Shown here one piece after another: positions 9,561-14,176 of a stretch of 14,605 nucleotides of DNA; position 1 is the first letter of the stretch, and the number at the start of each line of letters is the position of its first letter. A program made the position numbers and the translations under genes. This DNA is from a virus. Lineage: Duplodnaviria > Heunggongvirae > Uroviricota > Caudoviricetes. The notes under the pieces were generated by a model. It worked only from the letters and a program-made list of their open reading frames with translations, did no database searches and was not told where the DNA came from. The stretch lies in IMG/VR virus record IMGVR_UViG_2648501787_000003. The stretch is one strand, 5' to 3'.

Positions 9561-11327
9561 ATGAACACCACACTGACACCCGCAGATCTCGATCCCCGTC
9601 GGCAGGCCATGCTGCTGTACTTTCAGGGATACCGCGTCGCCCGCATTGCTGAAATGCTGGGCGAGAAAGTTGCAACTGTTCACAGCTGGAAAAAACGCGA
9701 CAAGTGGGGTGACTATGGGCCGCTGGATCAGATGCAGCTCACCACCGCCGCACGCTACTGCCAGCTCATTATGAAGGAGCACAAAGAAGGGAAAGATTTC
9801 AAAGAGATTGACCTGCTGGCGCGCCAGTCGGAGCGCCACGCGCGGATCGGCAAGTTTAACAATGGCGGCAACGAAGCCGATTTAAACCCTAACGTCGCCA
9901 ACCGCAACAAAGGCCCACGCCGTCAGCCGGAAAAGAATGTTTTCACCGATGAACAGATTGAGAAGCTGGAAGAAATCTTCCATTCCTCCATGTTCAACTA
10001 CCAGCGCCACTGGTGGGAAGCCGGAAAAACCAACCGCATCCGCAACCTGCTGAAGTCACGCCAGATCGGCGCAACCTTCTATTTTGCCCGTGAAGCCCTG
10101 ATTGACGCCCTGCTGACCGGACGTAACCAGATTTTCCTTTCCGCCAGCAAGGCACAGGCCCACGTCTTTAAGCAGTACATCTTCGACTTCGCCAAAGAAG
10201 TGGAGGTGGAGCTGAAAGGTGATCCGATGGTGCTTCCTAACGGTGCCACGCTTTACTTCCTCGGCACCAATGCCCGCACTGCCCAGAGTTATCACGGCAA
10301 CCTGTATCTGGATGAATATTTCTGGATACCGAAATTTCAGGAGCTGCGTAAAGTGGCTTCCGGTATGGCTATTCACAAAAAATGGCGACAAACCTATTTT
10401 TCCACGCCATCAAGCCTGACCCACAGTGCTTATCCGTTCTGGTCCGGTGCGCTGTTCAACCGTGGACGCAACAAAGCCGACAAGGTGGACATCGACCTGT
10501 CCCACAGCAATCTGGCCCCCGGCCTGCTGTGCGCAGACGGGCAATACCGCCAGATAGTCACCGTGGAAGATGCGGTGCGCGGCGGCTGCAACCTGTTCGA
10601 CCTTGACCAGTTGCGCATGGAGTACAGCCCGGACGAATACCAGAACCTGCTGATGTGCGAGTTTGTGGACGATCTCGCGTCCGTGTTTCCGCTCAGCGAG
10701 CTGCAGGCGTGCATGGTGGACAGTTGGGAAGTCTGGACCGACTTTCATGCACTGGCCCTTCGCCCGTTTGGGTGGCGCGAAGTGTGGATCGGTTATGACC
10801 CGGCAAAAGGTACGCAGAACGGCGACAGCGCCGGATGCGTGGTGGTGGCACCGCCAGCCGTGCCGGGCGGTAAGTTCCGTATTCTTGAGCGCCACCAGTG
10901 GCGCGGGATGGACTTCCGCGCCCAGGCGGACGCCATCAAAAAACTGACCGAACAGTACAACGTGACATATATCGGCATCGACTCGACGGGTGTCGGTCAC
11001 GGGGTTTACGAGAACGTGAAAGCGTTTTTTCCTGCCGTCCGGGAGTTTGTCTACAACCCCAACGTTAAAAATGCCCTGGTACTCAAGGCATACGACATTA
11101 TCAGCCACCGCCGTCTGGAGTTTGACGCCGGGCACACCGACATTGCGCAGTCATTCATGGCAATCCGTCGCGCCACCACCGCCAGTGGCAACCGCCCGAC
11201 CTATGAAGCCAGCCGCAGCGAAGAAGCCAGCCACGCCGATCTGGCCTGGGCAACGATGCACGCACTGTTTAATGAACCGCTGCAGGGCGAGTCCGCCAAT
11301 ACAAGCAATATTGTGGAGATTTTTTGA
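9561..11327 (+). CDS. P: Terminase large (ATPase) subunit gpP
   Basis: 588 aa; the N-terminal region resembles P2 gpP as I recall it (…DLDPRRQA…SWKKRDKW…KEGKDFKEIDLLARQ…); ATG at 9561; stop TGA overlaps the Q start. Confidence 0.9.
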   Translation: MNTTLTPADLDPRRQAMLLYFQGYRVARIAEMLGEKVATVHSWKKRDKWGDYGPLDQMQLTTAARYCQLIMKEHKEGKDFKEIDLLARQSERHARIGKFNNGGNEADLNPNVANRNKGPRRQPEKNVFTDEQIEKLEEIFHSSMFNYQRHWWEAGKTNRIRNLLKSRQIGATFYFAREALIDALLTGRNQIFLSASKAQAHVFKQYIFDFAKEVEVELKGDPMVLPNGATLYFLGTNARTAQSYHGNLYLDEYFWIPKFQELRKVASGMAIHKKWRQTYFSTPSSLTHSAYPFWSGALFNRGRNKADKVDIDLSHSNLAPGLLCADGQYRQIVTVEDAVRGGCNLFDLDQLRMEYSPDEYQNLLMCEFVDDLASVFPLSELQACMVDSWEVWTDFHALALRPFGWREVWIGYDPAKGTQNGDSAGCVVVAPPAVPGGKFRILERHQWRGMDFRAQADAIKKLTEQYNVTYIGIDSTGVGHGVYENVKAFFPAVREFVYNPNVKNALVLKAYDIISHRRLEFDAGHTDIAQSFMAIRRATTASGNRPTYEASRSEEASHADLAWATMHALFNEPLQGESANTSNIVEIF

Positions 11328-12373
11328 TGGGAAAGAGTAAGAAAAACCGCGCTGCGGCGATGAATCACATCCAGCATAAAAGCCAGACTTCAGCCGAAGC
11401 ATTCAGCTTCGGCGATCCCGTTCCTGTTCTGGACCGCCGAGAATTACTGGACTATGTGGAATGCGTACAGATGGACCGTTGGTATGAGCCGCCCGTCAGC
11501 TTTGACGGACTGGCGCGCACCTTCCGCGCCGCCGTGCATCACAGTTCCCCGATTGCAGTAAAGTGCAACATTCTGACCAGTACCTATATCCCTCATCCGC
11601 TGCTCAGCCAGCAGGCTTTTTCGCGTTTTGTGCAGGACTATCTGGTATTTGGTAACGCCTACCTGGAGAAACGCACGAACCGCTTCGGTGAAGTTATCGC
11701 CCTTGAACCGACCCTGGCAAAATACACCCGACGCGGATTAGACCTGGATACCTACTGGTTTGTGCAATACGGCATGACTACGCAGCCGTATCAGTTCACG
11801 AAAGGCAGCATTTTTCATCTGATGGAACCGGACATCAACCAGGAGATCTACGGCCTGCCCGGTTATCTTTCTGCCATTCCGTCAGCCCTGCTCAACGAGT
11901 CCGCCACGCTGTTCCGCCGCAAGTATTACATTAACGGCAGTCATGCAGGCTTCATCATGTACATGACCGATGCAGCGCAGAACCAGGAGGATGTGAACAA
12001 CCTCCGCAATGCGATGAAAAGCGCCAAAGGTCCTGGTAACTTCCGTAACCTGTTTATGTACTCGCCTAACGGTAAAAAGGACGGGCTTCAGATTATCCCG
12101 TTGTCAGAAGTGGCGGCGAAGGATGAGTTCCTGAATATCAAGAACGTGAGCCGGGACGACATGATGGCGGCGCATCGTGTGCCGCCACAAATGATGGGGA
12201 TAATGCCTAATAATGTCGGGGGGTTTGGGGATGTAGAAAAGGCAAGCCGTGTCTTTGTCCGCAACGAGTTGATACCTCTGCAGAAACGCCTACAGGAACT
12301 TAACAACTGGCTGGGCGATGAAGTTATACGTTTCGAGCCGTACACTTTAGATATTCAGAATGAAAAGAAATAA
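11327..12373 (+). CDS. Q: Portal (capsid vertex) protein gpQ
   Basis: About 348 aa, immediately downstream of P as in P2. The track starts at TTG 11324; I prefer ATG 11327, which overlaps the P stop (TGATG). Stop TAA at 12371-12373, followed by a hairpin. Confidence 0.85.
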   Translation: MGKSKKNRAAAMNHIQHKSQTSAEAFSFGDPVPVLDRRELLDYVECVQMDRWYEPPVSFDGLARTFRAAVHHSSPIAVKCNILTSTYIPHPLLSQQAFSRFVQDYLVFGNAYLEKRTNRFGEVIALEPTLAKYTRRGLDLDTYWFVQYGMTTQPYQFTKGSIFHLMEPDINQEIYGLPGYLSAIPSALLNESATLFRRKYYINGSHAGFIMYMTDAAQNQEDVNNLRNAMKSAKGPGNFRNLFMYSPNGKKDGLQIIPLSEVAAKDEFLNIKNVSRDDMMAAHRVPPQMMGIMPNNVGGFGDVEKASRVFVRNELIPLQKRLQELNNWLGDEVIRFEPYTLDIQNEKK

Positions 12374-12400
12374 AAGTTAGCGAATAAAAATCATTAGCAT

Positions 12401-12421
12401 AGGCCGCAAACTGAGCGGCCT
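12401..12421. terminator. Hairpin between convergent genes Q (+) and the 89-aa ORF (-); candidate bidirectional terminator
   Basis: aggccgc-aaactga-gcggcct (7-bp GC-rich stem, 7-nt loop), followed by tattcatt on the plus strand; located between the stop codons of the two convergent genes. Confidence 0.5.
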
Positions 12422-12427
12422 TATTCA

Positions 12428-12697
12428 TTACCAATTTCTTTTTTCGGAGTTTAGCCAATCACCGCATGGATAATATCTTGACGCCCATTCACCTTGTAAA
12501 CGAGCTACAAACAGAATATCGTTACTATCGACCCTGGCTTGGAGTCCGTCACGCAGTTGAGTTGCGGTCAGCGTTGTATCTACTAACCAAAATGATTCAA
12601 GATATTTACAGTATGTAAATTGCTTTAGATAGTCAAAAACTTCATCGTAGTTTCTTCCCGGAGCCTTCAAGTCATAGGTTATACAATAAATAGCCAT
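12428..12697 (-). CDS. Hypothetical 89-aa protein, predicted alpha/beta (ferredoxin-like beta-alpha-beta-beta-alpha-beta pattern); function unknown
   Basis: ATG at 12697 lies 3 nt after the stop of the upstream Cys-rich ORF; GGAG upstream; AT-rich codon usage unlike the structural genes; hairpin immediately after the stop. MAIYCITYDL... is a hydrophobic beta-strand-like N-terminus. No family assignment possible. Confidence 0.5.
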   Translation of the reverse strand: MAIYCITYDLKAPGRNYDEVFDYLKQFTYCKYLESFWLVDTTLTATQLRDGLQARVDSNDILFVARLQGEWASRYYPCGDWLNSEKRNW

Positions 12698-12700
12698 TCT

Positions 12701-12883
12701 CTAAGCTCCGCATTTTTTATCATTTGGGGAACATCTTAACCTGCGACATTTGCGGCAATACGATTGAGGGATCAGCCGCTCTCCTTCCATAGTTCTAAAA
12801 CCAAACACTTCTTCAATTTTGTTCAAATCACCACTTGCAATAACCCCACAGCAGGGGCAGACAGCCTCAATTTGAAATGCCAT
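12701..12883 (-). CDS. Hypothetical small Cys-rich protein (putative zinc ribbon), 60 aa
   Basis: Seven Cys in 60 aa, arranged CPCC…(30 aa)…CRKC…C…C. ATG at 12883 preceded by TGGAGATAGAC (GGAG 6 nt upstream). The track's 81-aa version starts at TTG 12946. Tightly coupled to the downstream 89-aa ORF. Confidence 0.45.
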   Translation of the reverse strand: MAFQIEAVCPCCGVIASGDLNKIEEVFGFRTMEGERLIPQSYCRKCRRLRCSPNDKKCGA

Positions 12884-12982
12884 GTCTATCTCCATTCCAC
12901 ATGTTGAATGTAGGGTAATACTTCCTTTCAAGCAAAAATGAGACAAGGATCTTGAAACCTAATTTAAACTTGCTTGCGCGCG

Positions 12983-13001
12983 CTCGTATCCCCGCCACGC
13001 C
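12983..13001 (-). other. Candidate cos site (cohesive-end region) of the P2/186 type
   Basis: Minus strand reads 5'-GGCGTGGCGGGGATACGAG-3'. By recollection the P2 and 186 cohesive ends are GGCGAGGCGGGGAAAGCAC and GGCGTGGCGGGGAAAGCAT (15/19 match to 186). Orientation relative to Q matches P2, where the 3' end of Q faces the left cos end. Confidence 0.45.
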
Positions 13002-13023
13002 TGCCCGCTTTATGTAGTAGTTT

Positions 13024-13130
13024 TCATGCAGGTGCATGATCTACGCGAAAGCCCGCCAGTTCTGGCGGGCCCTAGCAAAAACGATCCTCAAACGATCATG
13101 CGATCTCATGCAGCATAGTCATGCACGATC
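13024..13130. repeat. Cluster of TCATGC(A) repeats with five GATC sites
   Basis: TCATGCA at 13024-13030, 13106-13112 and 13119-13125; TCATGCg at 13096-13102; inverted TGCATGA at 13033-13039, forming the palindrome tcatgca-gg-tgcatga. GATC at 13038, 13083, 13094, 13102 and 13127. Confidence 0.5.
13051..13070 (-). terminator. GC-rich hairpin downstream of the 280-aa membrane-protein gene; possible terminator or cos-region structure
   Basis: gcccgccag-tt-ctggcgggc (9-bp perfect arms); on the minus strand it is followed by TTTCGCG, a weak T-tract. Confidence 0.35.
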
Positions 13131-13961
13131 ATTTGACTCAGCATCTGCTGCACGCTTGCTGCGCGAAGATGCACTTTTACTATCAATCTTTCGACAGTTC
13201 TTTCTATCCCTGGCTTCATTTTCTTTAAATTTGTTATATGTCTCAGTATCAAAAAACGAAATTGTTTCAACCTCATCTTTTGGTATGAGCACACGGAAAT
13301 CTTCGATATTAAGCCGAGACATTCCACTTATCACACCACTATCAAGATAATGTTGGTGATAGTTAGTCGTGATACTAATCGTTAGATCATCTTTATCCCG
13401 ATATCCGCTTAACATCGGGAGAAGTTCAAGGTGCTCTGAAAGCCCGTTTTCTAACGCCGGACAAGTAACAAGACCAACATAGATTTTGCGAGACGACAGA
13501 GTTGCTATGATCGGAAACTGTCTTGCGGACGCTTCCATGAGTAATGATTCGAAAGCGTTATTACCCACAGCTTTAGCTAAGGCATCCCAGCGACGATCTC
13601 CACGTGATGTGCGTAACTTATTTCCAAAACCTGAAATCGCAGCGAGGACAATTGAAATCATAACCCATGCTATCTGTTTGATTTCATTTATTCTTTGAAG
13701 TTTGTCTTTCGATGAAGACAACATGCCATTAAAACTGTCAGGTGTTAGATTCAAGGCATTAGCCAGCCAACGAAACCCTCCGCTGACGTTCAAAATAAAG
13801 GTGAAAAAACCGCCAAGGAGAAAAAAAACGATACCCCAGGCAGCCACAAAAAAATAAGCGTCCCAGCCGTTGGAACGCTTATATCGGTATCTTGTTGAAA
13901 GTGATAGGTTTACATAAATAAAACCACTAACCAAAATCACTGCTAAAAGTAATGTTGCCAT
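13119..13961 (-). CDS. Hypothetical membrane protein, 280 aa: three N-terminal TM helices plus ~160-aa C-terminal soluble domain with charged Ser/Lys/Arg-rich tail; function unknown
   Basis: Long ORF in AT-rich DNA; hydrophobic helices at about residues 2-21, 36-58 and 98-113. ATG at 13961..13959 overlaps the TAA of the upstream 71-aa ORF (TAATG), indicating translational coupling. Hairpin 13051-13070 lies ~50 nt past the stop. Confidence 0.65.
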   Translation of the reverse strand: MATLLLAVILVSGFIYVNLSLSTRYRYKRSNGWDAYFFVAAWGIVFFLLGGFFTFILNVSGGFRWLANALNLTPDSFNGMLSSSKDKLQRINEIKQIAWVMISIVLAAISGFGNKLRTSRGDRRWDALAKAVGNNAFESLLMEASARQFPIIATLSSRKIYVGLVTCPALENGLSEHLELLPMLSGYRDKDDLTISITTNYHQHYLDSGVISGMSRLNIEDFRVLIPKDEVETISFFDTETYNKFKENEARDRKNCRKIDSKSASSRSKRAADAESNDRA

Positions 13962-14176
13962 TATCTGGTTCTATTAGTTTTCTCTTTTACAGTGCTCGTT
14001 TTGATGCCTTCAAGCTTATCCATCTGTGCCTTGATGGCATCCATTGCTCTTTTGTTAGACAAGTCTACGGACACAAAACCATCTTTACTAAGATTGAGTT
14101 TGTCCTGGTTCTCTTTAAGAACCCTTGCCAGACGTTCAACTGGGTTACCCAGGCTAAATGCGGCGATGCTTGACAT
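13961..14176 (-). CDS. Hypothetical 71-aa soluble protein (predicted mostly helical, Lys/Glu-rich); first gene of a two-gene cassette
   Basis: ATG at 14176 preceded by a G-rich SD (AAAAGGGGGAGTT-ATG); stop overlaps the start of the membrane protein. The antisense plus-strand ORF 13992..14252 is the alternative reading, so confidence is moderate. Confidence 0.5.
   Translation of the reverse strand: MSSIAAFSLGNPVERLARVLKENQDKLNLSKDGFVSVDLSNKRAMDAIKAQMDKLEGIKTSTVKEKTNRTR

Follow-up and report, generated by a model that had tools for sequence, protein, structure and literature searches.

Gene content of the interval between Q and cos

The window analysed here, a stretch of 14,605 nucleotides (nt) from the virus record IMGVR_UViG_2648501787_000003, is part of a P2-like (Peduoviridae) prophage and carries a cassette of two small minus-strand genes between the portal gene Q and the cohesive-end site cos. 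The first gene of the cassette encodes a predicted zinc-finger protein of 60 amino acids (aa), and the second an 89-aa protein resembling Cas2. Over the stretch examined here, the window is 100% identical to a prophage of Escherichia coli S56. On one side, the terminase gene P (9561-11327, plus strand) is followed by Q, both reading rightward; on the other lies the cos core, whose motif recurs in the 25 P2-like loci compared and for which the cosL position is annotated in the phage P2 record. The positions of the features are collected in Table 1.

The distance from the Q stop (12373) to cos is 609 nt in the window, and the guanine-cytosine (GC) content is 0.40-0.41 over 12301-12900, against 0.52-0.64 across the structural genes. 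The initial annotation, made from the letters of the window, described an AT-rich insert with two minus-strand genes between the portal gene and cos, and stated that phage P2 has only a short non-coding stretch at this place. Both descriptions hold: the GC content is about 40%, the genes lie where they were placed, and the corresponding gap of P2 measures 167 nt and contains the terminator tQ only. Across P2-like phages, the interval is not normally empty, and in the Fels-2-like lineage it is a variable cargo slot.

Table 1. Positions of the cassette genes, their signals and the slot boundaries
Feature	Position	Strand	Description
Portal gene Q	11324..12373	+	Left slot boundary; Pfam Phage_portal, E=1.8e-18; 100% identity to the E. 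coli S56 portal
GC-rich hairpin between the convergent Q and Cas2-like genes	12401..12421	.	Terminator scan: 7 pairs, 6 of them G-C
Stand-alone Cas2/VapD-superfamily protein (by fold model and motifs), 89 aa	12428..12697	-	phrog_1090; RefSeq WP_001580536, 'hypothetical protein'
Predicted zinc-finger protein, 60 aa	12701..12883	-	Basic, histidine-free, seven-Cys; phrog_19700; no RefSeq annotation
GGAG ribosome-binding site of the Cas2-like gene	12706..12709	-	Within the last zinc-gene codons; minus strand = CGGAGCTTAGAGAATG
Zinc-gene leader, putative promoter region	12884..12982	-	Conserved blocks; GGAG at 12893-12890
cos core, 19-nt cohesive-end sequence	12983..13001	-	Right slot boundary; minus strand = GGCGTGGCGGGGATACGAG

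The 89-aa Cas2-like protein

The 89-aa gene is the only one in the cassette with a RefSeq annotation. The initial annotation recognised neither cassette protein and read a ferredoxin-like pattern in this one. Structure models of both proteins are confident, and that of the 89-aa protein bears out the ferredoxin-like fold. The protein also proves recognisable: by modelled fold and motifs it is a stand-alone member of the Cas2/VapD superfamily. Asp9 (D9) stands at the C-terminal end of beta1 and Ser35 (S35) at the beta2-beta3 turn, the arrangement that marks this superfamily, and alignment to Cas2 BH0342 sets D9, S35 and D60 on the Cas2 motifs YDI, SVF and DS. The three residues are conserved in 91-99% of family members; among 134 family representatives, D9 occurs in 94% and S35 in 92%. 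The full set of family-conserved positions comprises Y8-D9-L10, P13-G14, Y17, S35-x-W37, R49-D50, D57-x-N59-D60, V64, W71 and W81-L82. In VapD, BPSL1038 and some Cas2 proteins, Asp and Ser are taken to be the catalytic residues (PMC11980593, PMC10491678), and by analogy the 89-aa protein may be a nuclease.

By profile, superfamily membership rests on transitive evidence, because the relatives and not the window protein itself match Pfam CRISPR_Cas2 (PF09827). The window protein has no match to this model at E<=1 and does not reach its curated threshold, and it matches the PADLOC Cas2b model weakly (E=5e-4); 38/91 family representatives match PF09827 themselves, with a best E of 1.7e-9. An exhaustive profile search recovered 4,196 clusters at 50% identity (E<=1e-3), nearly all of them 85-95 aa in length, and the scan of loci used the narrow alignment A1, the broad family alignment A3 being too diverse. 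P0033, P0164 and P0160 include single chains in which the Cas2-like domain is duplicated in tandem (184 aa, 273 aa) and a 1,507-aa protein with an embedded copy at residues 367-433.

Compared with CRISPR Cas2 (PF09827; 1zpw, 7mi4_E, 3exc, 2i0x, 4es1), the 89-aa protein falls below every Pfam threshold, is phage-borne and has the family-specific W37, W71 and W81-L82 and a PG-x-x-Y loop. The window contains no cas1, CRISPR array or other cas gene, and no tandem, CRISPR-like or other meaningful repeats. The flanks of the gene region are Q and cos, unlike the context that defines a CRISPR-Cas adaptation module. Near the 56 genomic relatives that lie outside P2-like prophages there is likewise no cas1, CRISPR array or other cas gene, and none of their 142 nearest neighbours is Cas1. 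The closest known systems include BPSL1038 (Burkholderia pseudomallei; PDB 7vxr; PMC10491678); no VapD structure or sequence is among the best matches, and the protein looks more Cas2-like than VapD-like.

The 60-aa zinc-finger protein

As open reading frames (ORFs), the cassette comprises an 81-aa frame from a TTG start (12701-12946, minus strand) and the 89-aa frame (12428-12697, minus strand). The full 60-residue profile of PHROG 19700 aligns to residues 22-81 of the longer frame, and the homologues are 58-68 aa long; the true start is therefore placed at the ATG at 12883, giving 60 aa, with a GGAG at 12893-12890, 6 nt upstream. The 81-aa form was ruled out by this profile coverage. The initial annotation's zinc-ribbon protein of 60-81 aa thus keeps its seven cysteines and a Cys-rich zinc-binding fold model, but its length is 60 and not 81.

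The cysteines are C9, C11, C12, C43, C46, C51 and C58, in the pattern CxCC-N30-CxxC-N4-C-N6-C, and all seven are retained in homologues down to 52% identity. Histidine is absent from the protein, whose C-terminus is basic. The structure model shows a hairpin-helix-hairpin-helix arrangement (predicted local distance difference test, pLDDT, 83.5), which suggests a small zinc finger that would bind metal. A Pfam search of the 60-aa protein returned no match at E<=1.

Two candidate identities were rejected. An HNH or beta-beta-alpha-Me nuclease needs a catalytic His, and the protein is without histidine. The Ogr/Delta activator (PF04606, CxxC-N22-CxxxxC) has a different Cys spacing and gives no profile match, and a P4-like satellite that carries the zinc gene (L125 of the compared loci, which are numbered with the prefix L) has a separate Ogr_Delta gene. 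In E. coli S56 (NZ_CP010242), RefSeq/PGAP places no coding sequence at the zinc gene (L011 9331-9510, equal to window 12701-12883), and in Klebsiella phage records the gene is missing, truncated or mis-called. The unannotated zinc gene suggests that 60-aa hotspot genes are systematically missed by annotation.

Coupling, expression signals and selection

The TAG of the zinc gene (12703-12701) is followed by AGA and then by the ATG of the Cas2-like gene at 12697, a stop-to-start gap of 3 nt. Both genes are preceded by GGAG ribosome-binding sites, and since that of the second gene is embedded in the end of the first, the two are probably coupled in translation. The 3-nt gap and the embedded site are kept in 9/9 distinct pairs, down to 71% and 80% identity.

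Blocks of the leader preceding the zinc gene recur in conserved form across P2-like loci, and L020, in which zinc gene and leader lie on the other side of cos, has them too; by these comparisons, the leader travels with the zinc-finger gene. Because the leader is conserved, a promoter for the zinc gene probably lies within it. A sigma-70 scan found no match upstream of the zinc gene and three promoter-like hits, all within the Cas2-like coding sequence, and inspection by eye showed no dyad of the P2 late-promoter type (TGT-N12-ACA).

Selection bears on whether the ORFs are decaying or non-functional frames in AT-rich junk DNA, a possibility of degradation already raised by the initial annotation. 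The missing RefSeq annotation of the zinc ORF, the AT-rich surroundings and the lack of a consensus promoter would fit such an origin. Set against it are the ribosome-binding sites of both genes, the confident models of both proteins and the full length of both ORFs relative to their families. Comparison with diverged copies, with synonymous divergence (dS) up to about 1.7, gives ratios of nonsynonymous to synonymous change (dN/dS) of 0.005-0.08 for the zinc protein and 0.09-0.43 for the 89-aa protein. Because the ratio is low for both (0.005-0.43), the ORFs are not decaying remnants; purifying selection effectively refutes this explanation, whose probability is close to nil.

Optional cargo of a known hotspot

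The cassette is present in 8/5,426 complete E. coli genomes, against 1,274 that have the cos-flanking 143 nt. The same 143 nt occur in 87 phage records and the cassette in 4, which are Klebsiella Gegevirus phages at 84% DNA identity. Together with the interval of P2, these counts agree with the earlier view of the cassette as inserted, non-core cargo, and in other P2-like prophages the slot is taken by different cargo rather than by homologues of the two genes as conserved core genes. The Q-cos slot holds a 565-aa protein in Fels-2, a TIGR02391/Hypoth_Ymh protein or a 557-aa protein in other P2-like prophages, and elsewhere a pair of 208-aa and 60-aa proteins. E. coli strain 210221272 shares with the window the 280-aa and 71-aa genes beyond cos and has a different gene on the Q side, so the two sides of cos reassort independently.

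The whole gpQ-gpA region, cos included, has been defined as a hotspot in which anti-phage systems are abundant (Rousset et al. 2022, PMC9122126). Like other cargo of this hotspot (PMC9122126; PMC13586616), the cassette lies between gpQ and gpA and varies among near-identical prophages; it is optional cargo there. Unlike P2 old and tin, which occupy the A side of cos, it sits on the Q side. WP_001580536 appears in the locus table of PMC9122126 as 'hypothetical' and is not among the systems named, tested or validated there. The cassette is thus already catalogued as unnamed hotspot cargo and is not a new category. In the searchable literature, no description was found of the Cas2-like family, its zinc-finger partner or the association of that partner with cos in both P2-like and P4-like elements; a passing remark of 2013 says that integron cassettes often encompass 'Cas2-like proteins' (PMC3710099).

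Distribution of the Cas2-like gene

All Cas2-like copies of at least 71% identity occupy a P2-like Q-cos slot and are immediately preceded by the zinc gene. This set spans Escherichia, Klebsiella, Kluyvera and Citrobacter and includes 11 IMG/VR contigs in addition to L001, L011, L029, L032 and L033. The reverse deficit, a Cas2-like gene without the zinc gene, was found in none of the P2-like loci examined. Every copy at 65% identity or below is, in contrast, a lone gene with no zinc partner and no recurrent neighbour. Co-occurrence is therefore constant at >=71% identity in P2-like phages and nil at <=65%, and the zinc gene is often alone. The two genes are not obligate partners, each being widespread without the other.

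The copies at <=65% identity are found in integrative elements, beside integrases or cI-like repressors, and in one marine defence island beside Thoeris and Abi_2. In other phages they are single genes on the strand opposite their neighbours. An all-against-all comparison of the ORFs up to 60 nt upstream or downstream of the solo homologues returned one weak pair, two Nlp/Ner-like helix-turn-helix proteins, as a possible shared partner; most of the compared ORFs are apparently non-coding.

Several distant members stand next to genes of known defence systems. In Flavobacterium aquatile (L078 6001-8332) and Psychroserpens sp. (L081 1319-3679), a member of 28-34% identity lies directly upstream of the Menshen genes NsnB/NsnC, with a 4-nt overlap in the former and an 8-nt gap in the latter, in the slot normally held by the ParB-DUF262 sensor NsnA. 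That the Cas2-like protein is itself NsnA was rejected, NsnA being a ParB-DUF262 protein (PMC12065111). In Pedobacter sp. ok626 (L070 5968-9096), the Cas2-like gene ends 1 nt before a CBASS operon consisting of a SAVED-endonuclease effector and a cyclase-E2 fusion. In Ectopseudomonas mendocina (L063 6001-7041), it is followed after 24 nt by a gene for a 249-aa protein with a coiled-coil N-terminus and a TIR-like C-terminus, both judged by eye.

In an IMG/VR gut-phage contig (L110 3968-5688), a solo Cas2-like gene in the early region of a temperate phage is convergent with a Tad2-like anti-Thoeris gene 33 nt away; it shares its strand with a cI-like repressor gene and opposes the early operon. 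Among 59 phage neighbours, one, unlocalised, matches Acb1.

Such neighbours raise the alternative of an anti-defence module. The protein would then be a Cas2 look-alike made early after infection, either a decoy or dominant-negative form that disturbs spacer acquisition by host Cas1-Cas2 or a nuclease directed against an immune RNA or signal. The proximity to the Tad2-like gene and the single, unlocated Acb1 match would suit this, as would the small, single-domain protein, the prevalence of the family on phages and mobile elements and, in the circular or prophage form, the co-direction of the cassette with the early gpA-DinI genes across cos. A passive decoy would, however, have no need of the catalytic-type residues that are so strongly conserved; some relatives reside in chromosomal defence islands or head defence operons; and the gene near Tad2 runs against the early operon, on the strand of the repressor. 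Taken together, an anti-defence role appears improbable. If the decoy form were correct, the protein would represent a new class of anti-CRISPR acting on adaptation.

Distribution of the zinc gene and loss of its partner

The zinc gene occurs without the Cas2-like gene in Salmonella P2-like prophages (67 listed blocks), where the cargo across cos is GAPS4, GmrSD_N+HEPN, DinI or other. In the P4-like satellite of Pectobacterium odoriferum (L125 3520-4183) it comes first after a cos-like site that has diverged, with the delta gene (Ogr_Delta) on one side and the satellite's cargo and integrase on the other, a position that makes it a marker of the cos-proximal hotspot of helper and satellite alike. 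In L130-L132 it lies between a GAPS4 operon, 202 nt away and divergent, and an integrase at smpB, and no cos motif was found in this integrase island. Marine integrase islands and a region resembling a defence island also carry it without the Cas2-like gene, and in a non-P2 phage it is next to a Dam methylase gene. In the single case of L020, the gene and a leader of about 75 nt occupy the opposite side of cos, and a different gene follows. GAPS4 adjoins the zinc gene in two element types, the smpB integrase island and, across cos, Salmonella P2-like prophages (L135, L137); this adjacency could be a coincidence of hotspots or a functional link.

The Salmonella-type loci preserve a trace of the missing gene. 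Directly after the zinc stop, they read GAT TGG CTA AAC GTG GAT TAT AGG ACT TGG TAA, which corresponds to the last ten codons (DWLN....W*) of the Cas2-like gene. This scar is found in L017, L018 and L133-L138, where about 90 nt separate the zinc-gene stop from the portal stop, and its sequence would fit loss of the segment between two TGGCTA repeats, which lie at the start of the gene and near its end. The scar is identical in all six sampled loci (6/6), although the cargo across cos differs, so a single ancestral loss of the Cas2-like gene has spread widely. The zinc gene of these zinc-only loci is under strong purifying selection (dN/dS about 0.03).

These distributions would also suit two unrelated accessory genes ('morons') that share only a promoter and do not need each other, the zinc gene being a resident of hotspots near cos or integrases, where it might encode a regulator that binds nucleic acid, and the Cas2-like gene an independent cargo that landed downstream. 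Each gene is widespread without the other. The zinc gene moves with its leader across cos and there precedes another gene, comes first after cos in the satellite and stays under selection when alone, and the solo Cas2-like genes of other phages are typically lone and opposed to their neighbours. Chance neighbours would not readily account for a 3-nt gap and an embedded ribosome-binding site in every distinct pair, for the absence of Cas2-like-only arrangements in P2-like phages or for co-inheritance of the pair across Escherichia, Klebsiella, Citrobacter and Kluyvera. We regard two independent genes as the main rival reading, somewhat less probable than the one favoured below and well short of even odds.

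A VapXD-like module as the favoured reading

In the cassette, two small genes that move independently of each other have come together as an operon. By analogy with VapD systems, our tentative preference, held with clearly less than even confidence, is for a VapXD-like toxin-antitoxin or exclusion module with a zinc-finger partner. The module would be expressed from the prophage, and the co-translated zinc protein would bind and restrain the Cas2-like protein, or direct it. The Cas2-like protein would be a nuclease effector that damages RNA or DNA on release, and the released effector could exclude superinfecting phages, abort infection or help to retain the prophage. This model predicts a toxic effector, its neutralisation by the zinc protein and an anti-phage effect.

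The precedent lies in VapD toxins, which use Asp and Ser, are toxic and induce the SOS response on overproduction; small proteins whose genes directly precede theirs (VapX, VapY, VapW) neutralise them, and other VapDs are stand-alone (PMC11980593). The regulator or antitoxin plus effector layout proposed in the initial annotation therefore has a real counterpart, the effector here being Cas2/VapD-like. Like VapXD, VapYD and VapWD (PMC11980593), the cassette has a small gene immediately upstream of a Cas2/VapD-fold gene of the same superfamily that keeps Asp and Ser, and, as in the VapD family, paired and stand-alone members both exist. The arrangement of the operon points the same way, with the small protein encoded first, the genes 3 nt apart and the second ribosome-binding site inside the first gene. 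Loss is one-way, since zinc-only forms exist and Cas2-like-only forms were never seen in P2-like loci. The catalytic-type residues D9 and S35 are retained within a modelled Cas2 fold, with Cas2 hidden Markov model matches in support, the cassette lies in a defence hotspot, and distant relatives occur in defence islands or directly upstream of CBASS, NsnB/NsnC or a TIR gene.

Several observations weigh against this reading. At <=65% identity, the genes for homologues of the Cas2-like protein have neither the zinc partner nor any recurrent neighbour; as lone genes, they indicate that the family is not generally antitoxin-dependent. The zinc gene is common alone, beside unrelated cargo (P4-like satellite, integrase islands, GAPS4), and this, with purifying selection in zinc-only loci, argues that it has a function of its own. 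The zinc protein also has neither the SH3-like barrel of the antitoxins of VapXD and VapYD nor the inactivated-VapD fold of that of VapWD, being a predicted seven-Cys zinc finger instead, and PADLOC has no model for the pair. If the module is nevertheless of this kind, it would provide a new type of antitoxin for VapD and a new small system of the P2 hotspot.

A broader joint reading separates the roles of the two genes. The 89-aa protein would represent a branch of Cas2 that is independent of CRISPR, has no name and is very large (about 4,200 clusters at 50% identity), acting as a self-contained immune or counter-immune effector of mobile elements, and the zinc protein would be a cos-linked hotspot gene exchanged between P2 helpers and P4 satellites, with its own role in helper-satellite or packaging conflict. 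Possible roles for the Cas2-like proteins would then be those of a nucleic-acid sensor or nuclease heading CBASS, TIR and NsnB/NsnC operons, of a solo exclusion gene of prophages or of a decoy that disrupts spacer acquisition by Cas1-Cas2. This joint reading is a speculative one, to which we give only a small chance.

Cas2 is hardly known outside its role as structural partner of Cas1, and its free-standing relatives, such as VapD and BPSL1038, are few and poorly understood. Beyond the VapXD-like interpretation of the cassette, the analysis brings out a large unnamed family of solo Cas2-like genes on phages and mobile elements, sometimes heading defence operons; in the most thoroughly studied of the phage defence hotspots, one branch has gained a novel zinc-finger partner.

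Other features near the cassette

An Rfam scan of 12300-13200 gave no credible RNA family, the sole match being Trp-leader at E=0.36. The hairpin between Q and the Cas2-like gene has a conserved stem and a variable loop in L017 and L133-L138, a pattern that makes it a likely bidirectional terminator.

On the far side of cos, the window carries genes for a 280-aa protein (13119-13961, minus strand, phrog_3630) and a 71-aa protein (13961-14176, minus strand, phrog_9843), the stop of the 71-aa gene overlapping the start of the 280-aa gene. Pfam, NCBIfam and PADLOC assign neither protein. The N-terminal region of the 280-aa protein is hydrophobic and may span a membrane, and the two genes together form a candidate uncharacterised hotspot system.

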